From: Escherichia coli
GTDB lineage: Bacteria > Pseudomonadota > Gammaproteobacteria > Enterobacterales > Enterobacteriaceae
DNA length: 4,709 nucleotides
Reading direction: 5' to 3' (one strand)
Assembly: GCF_003334785.1 (NCBI RefSeq)
Contig: NZ_QOWV01000045.1
The notes under the pieces: model-generated
Database searches by the model: none
What the model was told of the DNA's origin: nothing
What the model saw: only the letters and a program-made list of their open reading frames with translations
Made by a program: the position numbers and the translations under genes
In this document: piece after piece, positions 1 through 4,709 of the stretch
Numbering within the stretch: position 1 is the first letter of the stretch
How the letters are laid out: each line of letters opens with the position of its first letter

Positions 1-71
1 GTGTATTTCTGGTCAACAACCAGTTGAGCGGATTCGCGTTTAAACTCTGCGCTAAAATTTCTTTTTTTCAT
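1..71 (-). CDS. IS3-family transposase OrfA (HTH subunit), first 23 codons only; the rest lies beyond the window start
   Basis: Minus-strand translation from ATG 71..69 gives [24 protein letters not shown]. This matches from memory the N-terminus of IS911 OrfA / InsN-type proteins (the SAEFK...AQLVV HTH lead-in). Too short to appear in the ORF track. Confidence 0.6.
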
Positions 72-143
72 TGGAGCACCTGTGTTGTTCTGAGGTGAGC
101 ATATCACCTCTGTTCAGGTGGCCAAATTCAGTGTGCCACTTCA
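1..143 (-). mobile_element. Left end of an IS3-family insertion sequence (IS911-like), cut by the window edge
   Basis: Read on the minus strand from position 143 the sequence begins TGAAGTGGCACACTGAATTTGGCC, a TG-initiated terminus typical of IS3-family inverted repeats. About 70 nt further in, an ATG (71..69) opens an ORF that runs off the window. The IS911 assignment is from memory. Confidence 0.6.
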
Positions 144-526
144 GTTTTTCACTGATATTCAGGGAACGGTTATGTGAGCTGAATATTCACAGAGGAAATA
201 CAGTGGTGCAGGTAACTCTGGCCTACGAAGCTCGGAAGTAAGCTGCCGGGCGGGGACGGAAGTCCCCGCTTTCCGGAAGTGTGAGGTATTTCAGGGGCAG
301 ACACCCTATATACCAGAAACAGCCGGTCCCGCCCGGGGCCGGCCCCCTGGGGCTAAGGCATTTCCAGCTTTTCAGTCATTTCATTATCAAAATCACATTA
401 AACGGCCGTAATCAGACATGATTTGTGCGCCAACACAGATCATCGTCACAACTTTCAAGTCGCTGATTTCAAAAAACTGTAGTATTCTCTGCGAAACGAT
501 CCCTGTTTGAGAATTGAGGAGGCGAG

Positions 527-787
527 ATGTCGCAGACAGAAAGTGCAGTGACTTCCTCATTGAGTCAAAAGCGGTTTGTGCGCAGAGGTAAGCCTATGTC
601 TGACTCTGAGAAACAGATGGCCGCTGTTGCAAGAAAACGTCTTACACACAAAGAGATAAAAGTTTTTGTCAAAAACCCTCTGAAAGATCTCATGGTTGAG
701 TACTGCGAGCAAAAAGGGATAACACAGGCTCAGTTCATTGAGAAAATTATCAAAGATGAACTGCAGAGGCTGGATATACTAAAGTAA
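527..787 (+). CDS. copB: CopB (RepA2), transcriptional repressor of the repA promoter in IncFII-type replicons
   Basis: 86-aa [42 protein letters not shown]..., recognised from memory as CopB/RepA2 of R1/R100-type plasmids. Shine-Dalgarno GAGGAGG at 516..522 sits 4 nt before the ATG. Position immediately upstream of copA/tap/repA1 is as expected. Confidence 0.9.
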
Positions 788-820
788 AGACTTTACTTTG
801 TGTCGTAGCATGCTAGATTA
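781..820 (+). promoter_or_regulatory. CopB operator dyad overlapping the repA promoter (P2) region
   Basis: Perfect dyad AAAGTAAAG-A-CTTTACTTT at 781..799 spans the copB stop codon (785..787). Candidate -35 (CTTTAC/TTTACT, 791..798) and -10 (TAGATT, 814..819) lie within and just after it. The role is assigned from the known R1/R100 circuit; the exact hexamers are uncertain. Confidence 0.5.
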
Positions 821-904
821 CTGATCGTTTAAGGAATTTTGTGGCTGGCCACGCCATAAGGTGGCAGGGAACTGGTTCTGATGTGGATTTACAGGAGCCA
901 GAAA

Positions 905-996
905 AGTGAAAACCCCGATAATCTTCTTCAACTTTGGCGAGTGCGAAAAGATTACCGGGGCTAACAAGAAACCGTATAGCCAACAATTCAGCTATG
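905..996 (-). ncRNA. copA: CopA antisense RNA (about 90 nt), complementary to the repA mRNA leader (CopT)
   Basis: On the minus strand there is a small 5' hairpin (972..979 pairing with 991..998). It is followed by a long imperfect stem-loop (913..925 pairing with 948..960, 12 bp with one mismatch, 22-nt loop). A U-rich tail then follows (plus-strand 901..912 GAAAAGTGAAAA reads UUUUCACUUUUC on the minus strand), making an intrinsic terminator. A sigma70-like promoter sits just upstream on the minus strand. The ends are approximate. Confidence 0.6.
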
Positions 997-1001
997 CGGG
1001 G

Positions 1002-1030
1002 AGTATAGTCATATGCCCGGAAAAGTTCAA
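1002..1030 (-). promoter_or_regulatory. Candidate copA promoter on the minus strand, lying inside the tap coding region
   Basis: Minus-strand -35 TTGAAC (plus 1025..1030) and -10 TATACT (plus 1002..1007) are separated by exactly 17 bp. This places the transcription start near 995..997, consistent with the CopA structure. Confidence 0.45.
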
Positions 1031-1087
1031 GACTTCTTTCTGTGCTCACTCCTTCTGCGCATTGTAAGTGCAGGATGGTGTGACTGA
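1013..1087 (+). CDS. tap: Tap leader peptide (24 aa), translationally coupled to repA1
   Basis: ATG at 1013 preceded by GGGGAG (998..1003). It translates to [24 protein letters not shown] and ends at TGA 1085..1087, overlapping the repA1 GTG start at 1080. This matches the known tap/repA coupling arrangement. Too short for the ORF track. Confidence 0.75.
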
Positions 1088-1937
1088 TCTTCAACAAACG
1101 TATTACCGCCAGGTAAAGAACCCGAATCCGGTGTTTACACCCCGTGAAGGTGCCGGAACGCTGAAGTTCTGCGAAAAACTGATGGAAAAGGCGGTGGGCT
1201 TCACTTCCCGTTTTGATTTCGCCATTCATGTGGCGCATGCCCGTTCGCGTGGTCTGCGTCGACGCATGCCACCGGTACTGCGTCGCCGGGCCATTGATGC
1301 GCTGCTGCAGGGGCTGTGTTTTCACTATGACCCGCTGGCCAACCGTGTCCAGTGCTCCATCACCACGCTGGCCATTGAGTGCGGGCTGGCGACAGAGTCC
1401 GGTGCCGGAAAACTCTCCATCACCCGGGCCACCCGGGCCCTGACGTTCCTGTCAGAGCTGGGACTGATTACCTACCAGACGGAATATGACCCGCTTATCG
1501 GGTGCTACATTCCGACCGATATCACGTTCACATCTGCACTGTTTGCTGCCCTCGATGTATCAGAGGAGGCAGTGGCCGCCGCGCGCCGCAGCCGTGTGGA
1601 ATGGGAAAACAGACAGCGCAAAAAGCAGGGGCTGGATACCCTGGGTATGGATGAACTGATATCGAAAGCCTGGCGTTTTGTGCGTGAGCGTTTCCGCAGT
1701 TACCAGACAGAGCTTAAGTCCCGGGGAATAAAGCGTGCCCGTGCGCGTCGTGATGCGGGCAGGGAACGTCAGGATATCGTCACCCTGGTGAAACGACAGC
1801 TGACGCGTGAAATCTCGGAAGGGCGCTTCACTGCTAATGGTGAGGCGGTAAAACGCGAAGTGGAGCGTCGTGTGAAGGAGCGCATGATTCTGTCACGTAA
1901 CCGTAATTACAGCCGGCTGGCCACAGCTTCCCCCTGA
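1080..1937 (+). CDS. repA1: RepA1 replication initiator protein of the IncFII/RepFIC family
   Basis: ORF-track protein ...[41 protein letters not shown]... is recognised as RepA1. Starting at GTG 1080 gives 285 aa, the length I recall for R100 RepA1, with AGGA at 1072..1075 upstream and overlap with the tap stop. The track start at GTG 1068 has no ribosome-binding site and adds 4 unsupported residues. Confidence 0.9.
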
Positions 1938-2110
1938 AAGTGACCTCCTCAGAATAATCCGGCACGCGCCGGAGGCATTCGCACACCTGAAGCCCGTCAG
2001 TGCACAAAAAAACAGCGCCACATACAAAAAACAACCTCACCATCCACCTTCTGGTACATCCGGTTCCCCCTGTTTTTAATACAAAATACGCCTCAGCGAC
2101 GGGGAATTTT
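1938..2110 (+). terminator. CIS spacer between repA1 and oriR (C-rich, A/C-biased; Rho-dependent terminator region in R1-type replicons)
   Basis: The sequence between the repA1 stop and the DnaA box is C-rich and G-poor with runs of CACA/CAAAAA, has no ORF, and is about 170 bp long. This matches the described CIS element needed for cis-action of RepA. Function is inferred from position and composition only. Confidence 0.45.
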
Positions 2111-2300
2111 GCTTATCCACATTTAACTGCAAGGGACTTCCCCATAAGGTTACAACCGTTCATGTCATAAAGCGCCAGCCGCCAGTCTTACAGGGTGCAA
2201 TGTATCTTTTAAACACCTGTTTATATCTCTTTTAAACTACTTAATTACATTCATTTAAAAAGAAGACTTATTCACTGCCTGTCCTTTGGACAGACAAATA
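2111..2300 (+). other. oriR, origin of vegetative replication (DnaA box plus AT-rich unwinding region)
   Basis: DnaA box at 2113..2121 followed by an AT-rich block around 2205..2275 (TGTATCTTTTAAACACCTGTTTATATCTCTTTTAAACTACTTAATTACATTCATTTAAAAAG). Layout and distance from repA1 fit the roughly 190-bp R1-type origin. Boundaries are approximate. Confidence 0.55.
2113..2121 (+). promoter_or_regulatory. DnaA box (perfect consensus TTATCCACA) at the repA-proximal edge of oriR
   Basis: Exact 9-mer TTATCCACA at 2113..2121, about 175 bp downstream of the repA1 stop, where the oriR DnaA box lies in R1/R100. Confidence 0.65.
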
Positions 2301-2819
2301 TGCACCTCCCACCGCAAGCGGCGGGCCCCAACCGGAGCCACTTTAGTTACAACACACAAAGACAACCTCCAGAAAAACCCCGGTCCCGCGCAGAACTGAA
2401 ACCACAAAGCCCCTCCTCATAACTGAAAAGCGAGGCCGCCCCCGCCCGAAGGGCGGGAACAACATCGCTTTTAATTATGAATGTTGTAACTACATTGTCA
2501 TCGCTGCCAGTCTTCTAGCTGGAAGTCCTCAGTACACGCTCGTAAGCGGCCCTGACGGCCCGCTAACGCGGAGATACGCCCCGACTGCGGGTAAACCCTT
2601 GTCGGGACCACTCCGACCGCGCACAGAAGCTTTCTCATGACTGAAAGCGGGTATAGTCTGGCAGGGCTGGGGATGGGTAAGGTGAAATCTATCAGTCAGT
2701 ACCGGCTTACGCCGGGCTTCGGCGGTTTTACTCCGGTATCATATGAAACAACGGAGTGCCGCCTTCCATGCCGCTGGCGCGGCATCAGGATAACTGAAGA
2801 GTGACAGTACACATCAACA

Positions 2820-2890
2820 TCAAACAGACTTGTTAAGCAGTCTTTCAGGGTGTAAGGTGAAGACCTGTTAAACAGTCTCAGAGGTGTGTT
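2820..2890 (+). promoter_or_regulatory. Candidate promoter/operator of the toxin-antitoxin operon with three iterated 9-mers
   Basis: Three copies of AA(A/G)CAG(A/T)CT at 2822..2830, 2835..2843 and 2870..2878, in the 70 bp upstream of the antitoxin ATG, with GAGG (2881..2884) as ribosome-binding site. Iterated sites overlapping the promoter are typical of autoregulated toxin-antitoxin operons. The promoter hexamers were not confidently placed. Confidence 0.35.
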
Positions 2891-3142
2891 ATGCCCAGTA
2901 TCATTTTGTCTGACACCAGTGCAAGCGTCAGTGAACTGAAAAAAAATCCAATGGCGACAGTCAGTGCCGGAGAGGGTTATCCTGTTGCCATTCTTAACCG
3001 GAATCAGCCTGCATTCTACTGTGTTCCTGCTGAATTGTATGAAAGGATGCTTGATGCTATGGATGACCAGGAGCTGGTGAAACTGGTTACTGAACGCAGC
3101 AATCAGCCACTACATGATGTGGACCTGGACAGTTATTTATGA
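2891..3142 (+). CDS. Type II antitoxin, Phd/YefM/StbD-like (83 aa)
   Basis: ORF MPSIILSDTSASVSELKKNPMATVSAGEGYPVAILNRNQPAFYCVPAELYERM... has the N-terminal pattern of Phd/YefM-fold antitoxins and an acidic C-terminal tail. Its stop overlaps the toxin start in ATGA (3139..3142), the classic toxin-antitoxin coupling. Confidence 0.8.
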   Translation: MPSIILSDTSASVSELKKNPMATVSAGEGYPVAILNRNQPAFYCVPAELYERMLDAMDDQELVKLVTERSNQPLHDVDLDSYL

Positions 3143-3426
3143 CTTATACGGTTAAATTCAGGGATGATGCCCTCAGGGAATGGCTGAAACTGGATAAATC
3201 CGTTCAACAACAGTTCGCAAAAAAACTAAAAAAATGCAGCGAAAATCCTCATATACCTTCAGCAAAACTACGTGGATTAAAAGATTGCTACAAAATAAAA
3301 CTTCGTGCATCAGGTTTTCGTCTGGTCTATCAGGTGATTGATGACATGTTAATTATTGCGGTTGTCGCAGTAGGTAAACGTGAACGTAGTCATGTTTACA
3401 ATCTCGCCAGCGAGAGAATGAGATAG
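3139..3426 (+). CDS. relE: RelE/ParE-superfamily toxin (RelE/StbE-like mRNA interferase, 95 aa)
   Basis: ORF MTYTVKFRDDALREWLKLDKSVQQQFAKKL...KLRGLKDCYKIKLRASGFRLVYQVID...VGKRERSHVY is closely similar, from memory, to E. coli RelE (KLRGMPDCYKIKLRSSGYRLVYQVID...VGKRERSEVY). Same length as RelE and 4-bp overlap with the antitoxin gene. Confidence 0.85.
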   Translation: MTYTVKFRDDALREWLKLDKSVQQQFAKKLKKCSENPHIPSAKLRGLKDCYKIKLRASGFRLVYQVIDDMLIIAVVAVGKRERSHVYNLASERMR

Positions 3427-3435
3427 GGGGTGTTA

Positions 3436-3981
3436 ATGCTTTTAAGTTTTAGTGAGTTAGATGTTCTTATTTATCAGGGGAAGGTTGGGGGTTTATTTCG
3501 TGAAAGAAAAAACGAAAGGATTGCTACAGACATTGATTCCAGAAACAAGTCATCATCAAGCAGTCATGAATATGATTCAGTTTTATCATTTCTATTTATT
3601 TGTGATAATGGAAAAGAAATAAATGTGAATTTAACAAATTGGAATATTAACATATTTCCAGGTCAAGAGATTGTCATTTATTTTGTGGAAAACTCAAAGA
3701 AAAACAAAAAAATACCATACATGATAAAAAACAAAAGCACATCGGAAGTGACTAATAATGTTCAAGAAATGTATAAAGAGTTTTTTTATACATCATACTT
3801 CAAACTGATAATACCTTTCCTTTTAATCATTTCTTACTTTATGTCATCCATATCTGTGGCTATCATGTCATTCGTTTTATATGTCATAATCAGAAGAAGA
3901 ATAGGAAAAGATTTCTTTTCAGAAATAAAAAGGAAAAGGTTAAAAAAAGAAGATATCATGGGGTTAGAGCACGTAATATAG
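3436..3981 (+). CDS. Hypothetical small membrane-anchored protein (181 aa from ATG 3436), AT-rich orphan gene of unknown function
   Basis: Uninterrupted 181-183 codon frame in DNA of roughly 25-30% G+C (by eye), where stop codons should be frequent. GGGGG (3425..3429) lies 6 nt before ATG 3436; GTG 3430 is an alternative start. The product has a polar N-terminal region with a Ser run, one long hydrophobic segment FKLIIPFLLIISYFMSSISVAIMSFVLYVII, then a basic tail RRRIGK...KRKRLKK. I recognise no family. Confidence 0.7.
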   Translation: MLLSFSELDVLIYQGKVGGLFRERKNERIATDIDSRNKSSSSSHEYDSVLSFLFICDNGKEINVNLTNWNINIFPGQEIVIYFVENSKKNKKIPYMIKNKSTSEVTNNVQEMYKEFFYTSYFKLIIPFLLIISYFMSSISVAIMSFVLYVIIRRRIGKDFFSEIKRKRLKKEDIMGLEHVI

Positions 3982-4028
3982 GGGCGACAGGTCCTTATAA
4001 GGGACCGTCCAGGGACCGGAGTTCCATT

Positions 4029-4070
4029 GCTACGCCGGAACCGCCGAAATTTCCGGCGTAGCTCTCTCTT
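4029..4070 (+). terminator. Candidate intrinsic terminator after the AT-rich gene
   Basis: Perfect 12-bp inverted repeat GCTACGCCGGAA (4029..4040) / TTCCGGCGTAGC (4051..4062) with a 10-nt loop, followed by the pyrimidine/T-rich tract TCTCTCTT. A second hairpin, GGTCC-TTATAAG-GGACC, lies at 3990..4006. The U-tract is weak, so the terminator function is tentative. Confidence 0.35.
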
Positions 4071-4088
4071 GCCTGGACGTTCTGTTGT

Positions 4089-4126
4089 GGGGGGTGAGGG
4101 CCAATGGAACGAAAGCGTACGGTAAG
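4089..4126 (+). mobile_element. Terminal inverted repeat (38 bp) of a Tn3-family transposon, Tn1000 (gamma-delta)-like; transposon interior lies to the right
   Basis: GGGGGGTGAGGGCCAATGGAACGAAAGCGTACGGTAAG matches from memory the Tn1000 repeat GGGGTTTGAGGGCCAATGGAACGAAAACGTACGTTAAG at about 34 of 38 positions. It also carries the Tn3-family hallmarks: GGGG terminus, TGGAACGAAA core, ACG..TAAG inner end. Orientation puts the element outer end at 4089. Confidence 0.65.
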
Positions 4127-4507
4127 GGCTCCGTTTGGGAAACGGACAATATTGTACGGTTGCGTTATCGCGGTAGGGTGTACTCCCGCGCTATACGGTG
4201 TTTTCAGGATAATTGGTCTTAATCGGATAACCTAAATGCGATACAGCAAGAGCGACAACTTAAAAGCGATTAAACCTGCCGCCGCCAGAACGGTACAGTC
4301 CCTGACACAGGCACCACTGGTATAATCCAGTAAAGAGCATATGGAGAACTTATCATGTCGTCACGCAACTCTATACATGATTTTATAATGCTGCTCCCGG
4401 CGCTGCTGTTTGTTGGTAAGCGTACAGCCTGAACCGTCTGGTCAGAATCTGACGAATTAGACAAAGTGGTGTCCACCAAATAAGTAGTGGGAACCAAAGT
4501 GTCAGAT

Positions 4508-4636
4508 ATGCAGAAAAATGTGACTCCCGGCAGGCGAAAAGGCTGCCCTAATTATCCTCCCGAATTTAAACAGCAGCTCGTTGCTGCCTCCTGTGAACCC
4601 GGGATATCCATCTCAAAACTTGCTCTTGAAAAGTAA
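4508..4636 (+). pseudogene. Short OrfA-like fragment of an IS3-family transposase (42 codons then stop)
   Basis: ATG 4508 translates to MQKNVTPGRRKGCPNYPPEFKQQLVAASCEPGISISKLALEK and stops. The (Y/F)xxEFK...V...SIS..A pattern is the N-terminal HTH lead-in of IS3-family OrfA proteins, which are normally about 100 aa. A TGAACCG motif 78 bp upstream (4430) resembles an IS3-type end. Weak evidence. Confidence 0.3.
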
Positions 4637-4709
4637 CCGGCTCATTTAAACCGTCTGGTCTGTTTCCTCCGGCTCTACAAAAATAATGTCCATCATTTTT
4701 AATGGACAC

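Follow-up and report, generated by a model that had tools for sequence, protein, structure and literature searches.

At the right edge of a 4,709-bp stretch of Escherichia coli DNA (the window, meaning the whole stretch that was analysed), a 42-codon open reading frame resembling part of a transposase gene lies between two copies of a 12-bp direct repeat. The question raised by this locus is what the frame and the repeat represent and how they came to lie together. The original prediction saw a fragment of an IS3-type OrfA inside a transposon, that is IS debris or a rearrangement scar, or possibly a small helix-turn-helix (HTH) regulator derived from a transposase, and this interpretation was partly supported overall. 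Its description of the sequence was accurate: both copies of the repeat (4432..4443 and 4649..4660) are exact, a TGAACCG motif is present at 4430-4436, and the frame at 4508..4636 is a truncated transposase-associated HTH gene, as seen from its translation and from the 126-aa TnpA that can be restored from it. The locus almost certainly results from two successive transpositions of IS66-family elements on an IncF plasmid, ISCro1 being nested in ISEc22 (both names are taken from the NCBI annotation).

The window corresponds to positions 1574-6282 of the E. coli plasmid pWP7-S17-ESBL-04_2 (NZ_AP022179.1, locus L001), with 1 mismatch in the 4,709 bases compared; this sole difference lies at window position 1099, inside repA. 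The setting had been taken for the interior of a transposon, and what surrounds the nested IS is an IncFII replicon region. Replication genes and a toxin-antitoxin system occupy window 1-4400: an ORF for a copB-type replication regulator (527-787), the CopA antisense RNA on the minus strand (904-995; Rfam RF00042, 101.7 bits), repA (1068-1937), an antitoxin and RelE/ParE toxin pair (2891-3426) and an AT-rich ORF for a 183-aa hypothetical protein with a hydrophobic C-terminal part (3430-3981). CopA was the only RNA found in the Rfam search, and it is distant from the segment carrying the repeat and the 42-codon frame.

A BLAST search with positions 4400-4709 gave matches that split at ~4632: the left part occurs very widely and is labelled 'transposase' in annotations, and the right part begins an 'IS66-like element accessory protein TnpA'. 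The left part, 4416..4632 on the + strand, is the left 217 bp of ISEc22 and comprises the left terminal inverted repeat, the leader and the first 41 codons of tnpA with 2 further bases. Three other loci (L002, L003 and L007) have an ISEc22 left end 100% identical to it, and a fourth (L004) has one that is 99.5% identical. The flanks of these four copies are unrelated to the window, and homology begins at the GTAAGCG at 4416; the TGAACCG that had been proposed as the element end is internal to the terminal repeat, the element starting 14 bp upstream. The left end (GTAAGCGTACAG...) and the right end, read as its reverse complement (GTAAGCGTGCAG...), have terminal repeats identical at 22/28 positions. 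The left 8-bp target-site duplication, GTTTGTTG, lies at 4408..4415 on the + strand, and its second copy directly adjoins the right end of the element in the plasmid record (L001 11137-11144). A plasmid with the same backbone and no IS, CP099137.1 (L006), has a single copy of the duplicated sequence at the ISEc22 site (single GTTGGTTG).

The same comparison revealed that a small unannotated putative ORF is split by ISEc22. Its remnant in the window (4355-4432) would encode 25 aa (MSSRNSIHDFIMLLPALLFVGKRTA, then a stop codon), and in the IS-free backbone of CP099137.1 the putative ORF is uninterrupted (L006 7219-7452), with 77 aa, a hydrophobic N-terminal stretch and a serine acetyltransferase gene downstream.

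The remainder of the window, 4633..4709 on the + strand, consists of the first 77 bp of ISCro1: the left terminal repeat GTAACCGG..., the leader and the first 8 codons of tnpA (ATG at 4686). The element is complete and extends past the window edge to a length of 2,699 bp, its ends and length being computed on NZ_AP022179.1, where positions 6259-8874 are annotated as tnpA, tnpB and an ISCro1-family transposase. Its left end (GTAACCGGCTCA...) begins with GTAACCG, 1 mismatch from the canonical GTAAGCG, and its right end (reverse complement GTAAGCGACTCG...) is canonical. The left 8-bp target-site duplication of ISCro1, CTTGAAAA, occupies 4625..4632 on the + strand, corresponding to ISEc22 positions 210-217, and a second CTTGAAAA stands directly after the right end (L001 8905-8912); at two loci, L005 and L002, the sequence is present as a single copy (CTTGAAAATGGC). 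After ISCro1, the tnpB and transposase genes of ISEc22 resume in NZ_AP022179.1. The statement that no OrfB follows the frame was correct within the window, which ends 77 bp into ISCro1 and so gives this appearance, but it does not reflect a real absence of the downstream genes tnpB and tnpC of ISEc22.

ISCro1 received its name in Citrobacter rodentium and is the most expanded IS of that species (PMC3072379). Copies are also present in the chromosome of the host strain (H281), and the identity of the plasmid copy to complete copies in other genomes is 99.85-99.96%. With intact genes and an identity of at least 99.85% to complete copies elsewhere, this copy of ISCro1 is probably still active.

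The junction of the two elements accounts for the 42-aa frame (4508..4636, + strand; MQKNVTPGRRKGCPNYPPEFKQQLVAASCEPGISISKLALEK, then a stop codon). Its first 41 residues are those of ISEc22 TnpA, and the ISCro1 terminus (GTAA...) completes the last codon, AAG, by its third base and adds the TAA stop codon. The segment was rightly seen as IS debris, and the debris is a remnant of ISEc22 tnpA. Excision in silico of ISCro1 together with one CTTGAAAA yields a 2,441-bp ISEc22 with a 126-aa tnpA ORF, the product of which scores 97.5 bits on the IS66 TnpA model NF047595 (cut-off 74, NCBIfam). The best NCBIfam matches of the 42-aa fragment are also IS66 TnpA models; taken alone it lies below the family cut-offs (28.7 bits vs 74 on NF047595 and 22.4 vs 150 on NF038385), so that it is the restored ORF, with its context, that places the outer element in IS66. 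ISEc22 TnpC scores 468.1 bits on the IS66 transposase model NF033517 (cut-off 180). For ISCro1, TnpC reaches 477.9 bits on the same model and TnpA 295.8 bits on NF038385 (cut-off 150).

The IS66 family has as its hallmarks terminal repeats that begin with GTAAGCG and measure 20-30 bp, direct repeats of 8 bp (PMC11946415) and genes for TnpA, TnpB and a DDE transposase (PMC12888890). ISEc22 has GTAAGCG-type terminal repeats, GTTTGTTG on both sides and the three genes, namely the restored tnpA followed by an annotated IS66 tnpB and a gene for an IS66-type DDE transposase. Terminal repeats, an 8-bp duplication and three genes are likewise found in ISCro1.

In the restored TnpA, the Pfam domain HTH_Tnp_1 covers residues 16-86, and the cut at residue 41 falls inside it. 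The 42-aa product is presumably a non-functional remnant. The copy of ISEc22 in the window can presumably no longer move on its own, since in the related IS679 the three genes tnpA, tnpB and tnpC are reportedly all required for transposition.

The order of events can be read from related plasmids. A sister plasmid, NZ_CP069544.1 (L005), is 100% identical to window 1-4632 and carries at the same site an uninterrupted ISEc22, annotated as ISEc22 family, with the same GTTTGTTG flanks and with CTTGAAAATGGC across the ISCro1 target; this element differs from the in silico reconstruction by 3 mismatches. Among complete E. coli genomes, 3,125 of 5,426 contain an uninterrupted tnpA site. Both pairs of ends, both 8-bp duplications, the restored ORF and each of the three intermediate states were observed directly, and the order is backbone, then ISEc22, then ISCro1, the last step being recent. 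ISEc22 (2,441 bp) entered the plasmid at a site downstream of the replicon and the toxin-antitoxin genes, duplicating GTTTGTTG. Later, ISCro1 (2,699 bp, with tnpA-tnpB-tnpC intact) inserted in the same orientation into ISEc22 tnpA, duplicating CTTGAAAA; this insertion cut TnpA after residue 41, inside the helix-turn-helix, and the GTAA terminus of ISCro1 made the stop codon.

Could the 42-aa frame instead have been retained as a small, domesticated HTH regulator descended from an accessory protein of a transposase? It does keep its native upstream region and its start codon, and truncated products of 60 and 68 aa in other genomes are annotated 'transposase' by NCBI. However, residues 16-41 are all that is left of a domain extending over residues 16-86, and the stop codon arises incidentally from the ISCro1 terminus. 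The retained lengths of ISEc22 TnpA differ between genomes (41, 59 and 67 residues), and such varying truncation points indicate no selection for one particular truncated product. The sister plasmid, identical over 4.6 kb, keeps the full gene, which makes the truncation a recent event and not a conserved condition. We regard a regulatory role as very improbable.

The IS3 reading, in which an OrfA remnant ends at TGAACCG and the 12-bp repeats mark either a scar left by deletion or rearrangement or else a target duplication, is hardly credible. IS3-family elements have ends of the type TG...CA, so that an end starting with TG would fit, and their target duplications are 3-5 bp. A resemblance to an IS3 OrfA is real and distant: the restored protein has an HTH_Tnp_1 domain and matches weakly the IS2 TnpA model NF006928 (29.3 bits) and the IS3 transposase model NF033516 (20.9 bits), and it is through such weak matches that the 42-aa fragment looked like an IS3 OrfA. 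These scores are nevertheless far below the cut-offs of 229 and 160, respectively, whereas the IS66 TnpA model passes its own. Furthermore, the genes downstream are an IS66 tnpB and an IS66 DDE transposase gene (tnpC) and not an IS3 OrfB, homology in unrelated loci starts at the GTAAGCG at 4416 and not at TGAACCG, and each duplication has a length of 8 bp. The element belongs to IS66 and not to IS3. Target duplication by the 12-mers was rejected, as the duplications are of 8 bp and are located elsewhere.

With regard to a scar, a rearrangement did take place at this locus, in the form of an insertion, but the 12-mers are not a deletion scar. In the 5,426 E. coli genomes, every match with full coverage consisted of two pieces over 129-330 bp, no genome had the segment between the 12-mers deleted, and the hybrid left end predicted from a fusion of the 12-mers was absent. 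The repeat does not bracket an indel; the indel that distinguishes relatives is the 2,699-bp ISCro1 to the right of 4632, and absence of the bracketed segment from related sequences, which had been suggested as a check, was not found.

The repeat itself has another origin. In the whole window, AACCGTCTGGTC is present exactly twice on the + strand, with no further match at 1 mismatch, for an expectation of 0.03 and with two matches in 0/200 shuffles; it is the sole exact 12-mer repeated in the window. Some repeated 12-mer appeared in 196/500 shuffles (39%), and a pair at most 250 bp apart in 23/500 (4.6%), so that, as an unplanned observation, a repeated 12-mer is only marginally unusual. What raises it above chance is the common register of the two copies. 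On the + strand, copy 1 (4432..4443) is positions 17-28 of the ISEc22 left terminal repeat and copy 2 (4649..4660) is positions 17-28 of the ISCro1 left terminal repeat, counted from termini beginning GTAA(G/C)CG at 4416 and 4633. The two left ends are identical at 19 of their first 28 bases, with GTAA-CG common at positions 1-7; AACCGT is found at positions 17-22 in all four ends of ISEc22 and ISCro1, and at L010 the left end of a third IS66-family element has ACCGTCTGG in matching register. A coincidence of no biological meaning, for all the frequency of repeated 12-mers in shuffled windows, is scarcely believable for two copies that share their position in related termini with a third left end.

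The two elements are otherwise distinct, with 59% nucleotide identity overall and protein identities of 43% for TnpA, 77% for TnpB and 59% for TnpC, and the 12/12 block is for this reason a conserved motif and not a duplicated segment. The pair of 12-mers is a conserved sub-terminal motif of two related left ends, seen as a direct repeat because both left ends have the same orientation and are 217 bp apart. The right ends of ISEc22 and ISCro1 carry GAACCGTATTGA instead, at positions 16-27 (L001 8877-8904 and 11109-11136). This difference between left and right motifs is conserved across both elements, which suggests that left and right ends may be functionally distinct in this IS66 subgroup.

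The survey of genomes also gave an observation on the distribution of ISCro1. Two-piece and three-piece queries were run against the 5,426 E. coli genomes, the counts including many clonal genomes. An ISCro1 end was found within ~540 bp inside an ISEc22-type left end in 68 records in the same orientation (~17 spacings) and in 57 records in the opposite orientation (~16 spacings). In the last 540 bp of ISEc22, at the right end, the numbers were 0 and 1 record, respectively, and the internal block 580-1140 of ISEc22 gave 1 record (H426). Within ~560 bp outside the left end, ~15 spacings were found among the matches listed, and ~11 records had ISCro1 inside the left part of another ISCro1. ISCro1 ends thus cluster around ISEc22/ISEc8-type left ends, with 125 records vs 1-2 in each of the two controls; right-end queries matched fewer places (~8,750 vs ~14,170), denominators that differ by less than two-fold. 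Two-piece spans do not always represent insertion positions (L010 and L009, the far side not being ISEc22 at L009), and the lists of offsets are approximate. An orientation bias was considered as the first three examples had the same orientation, but the 68 same and 57 opposite records of the survey indicate none.

Several cases illustrate this distribution. In pO103-type plasmids (e.g. NZ_CP027220.1; L007 3501-3757 and L011 ~4100-4200), ISCro1 likewise sits at the CTTGAAAA site of ISEc22 but in reverse, with the duplication on both sides, and this reversed copy is an independent hit on the same 8-mer. Checks at the sequence level placed ISCro1 at ISEc22 position 70 with duplication AAATAAGT (L008, NZ_CP024257.1) and at position 271 (L003). 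In a pO157-like plasmid (L002, NZ_CP027556.1; 5284 onward), another IS66-family element, with the left end GTAAGCGCCCCATCTGCGACG... and in the same orientation, breaks ISEc22 tnpA after position 270; the ISCro1 point of L003 is one base away. A triple nest is present in NZ_CP027331.1 (L010 3501-3640), where 47 bp of an ISEc22 left end are followed by the third IS66-family left end, GTAAGCGTCGTCTCAGCACCGTCTGGCAG..., then, 92 bp on, by a reversed ISCro1 with the duplication AAATCATT, and then by another GTAAGCG-type end. Three ISCro1 cases outside the left end have spacings of 83, 144 and 291 bp (L012-L014). Insertions lie either 47-557 bp inside the left end or 83-558 bp outside it, and they occur in both orientations and with normal 8-bp duplications.

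A chromosomal island beside zinc-ribbon, inovirus Gp2 and Hha genes was found in two strains (L004 6003-10998, NZ_CP173493.1, and L008, NZ_CP024257.1), with ISCro1 at position 217 in the former and at position 70 in the latter. The left 217 bp of its ISEc22-like element are 99.5-100% identical to ISEc22 and the remainder 87.5-92.5%, so that the element is a mosaic or a variant. Movement of ISEc22::ISCro1 as a unit was considered and rejected: L004 has the same junction, but no flanking duplication is present and the outer right part is 87.5% identical.

It is possible, if rather doubtful, that IS66 elements (ISCro1 and at least two others) favour sites near resident IS66 left ends, with CTTGAAAA as a reusable 8-bp hot spot and recognition of the left-end motif AACCGTCTGGTC as one possible cause. 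An incoming TnpA or transposase would recognise AACCGTCTGGTC, which is present at the left ends of ISEc22 and ISCro1 and absent from their right ends. If true, such left-end targeting would act within a few hundred bp, on either side and in either orientation, and would explain the proximity of the 12-mers. The left 300 bp of ISEc22 are somewhat less GC-rich (0.45-0.52) than most of the element, and a sequence preference may contribute to the clustering, since the verified duplications are A/T-rich. In the literature searched, no description was found of IS66-family target specificity or nesting, or of left-end clustering, which is weak evidence of newness.

The nested IS66 insertion is ordinary and already present in public annotated records. 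Its analysis tidies the annotation by marking ISEc22 tnpA as a pseudogene, by giving two IS66-family elements their correct boundaries and by dating the order of events, and indicates that the ends of two IS of the same family can pass for a scar-type direct repeat. The left-end clustering is the sole lead that is potentially non-trivial. If it holds after dereplication, it would provide a testable target-selection rule for IS66, a poorly understood family, as well as a left-end motif that is a candidate for protein binding, and it would help explain IS66-family nests on virulence and resistance plasmids.

Compared with known systems, ISEc22 and ISCro1 are of the classic three-gene IS66 type and are relatives of IS679 and ISEc8. 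They share with the family the GTAAGCG repeats, the 8-bp duplications, the tnpA-tnpB-tnpC arrangement, an HTH_Tnp_1 domain in TnpA and a DDE TnpC. They depart from typical IS66 copies in that the ISEc22 of the window is interrupted and the left end of ISCro1 is GTAACCG, without any difference in kind. As in the IS-in-IS insertions that are common in plasmids and genomic islands, the older element encloses a younger, intact one that has its own duplication, and in silico removal of the insert and one copy of the duplication restores the host gene. Unlike the usual nests, both elements belong to the same family and have the same orientation, with the result that their homologous ends mimic a short direct repeat. 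Likeness to the IS3-family OrfA of the IS911 and IS2 type is limited to the N-terminal DNA-binding domain HTH_Tnp_1 of the restored TnpA; the family, the ends (TG...CA), the duplication length, the frameshifted OrfAB arrangement and the transposase differ. Finally, in the 'IR-targeting' insertion of IS30 and the 'targeted' insertion of IS911, elements insert beside their own inverted repeats; IS30 inserts abutting the repeat and forms IRL-IRR junctions in a strict orientation (PMC9333248). The ISCro1 insertions resemble IS30/IS911 targeting in clustering only, the end of a resident IS appearing to attract related elements. In contrast to IS30, they are found on either side of the left end, at distances of tens to hundreds of bp, in both orientations and with normal 8-bp duplications, and abutting insertion, IRL-IRR junctions and strict orientation are not their mode.
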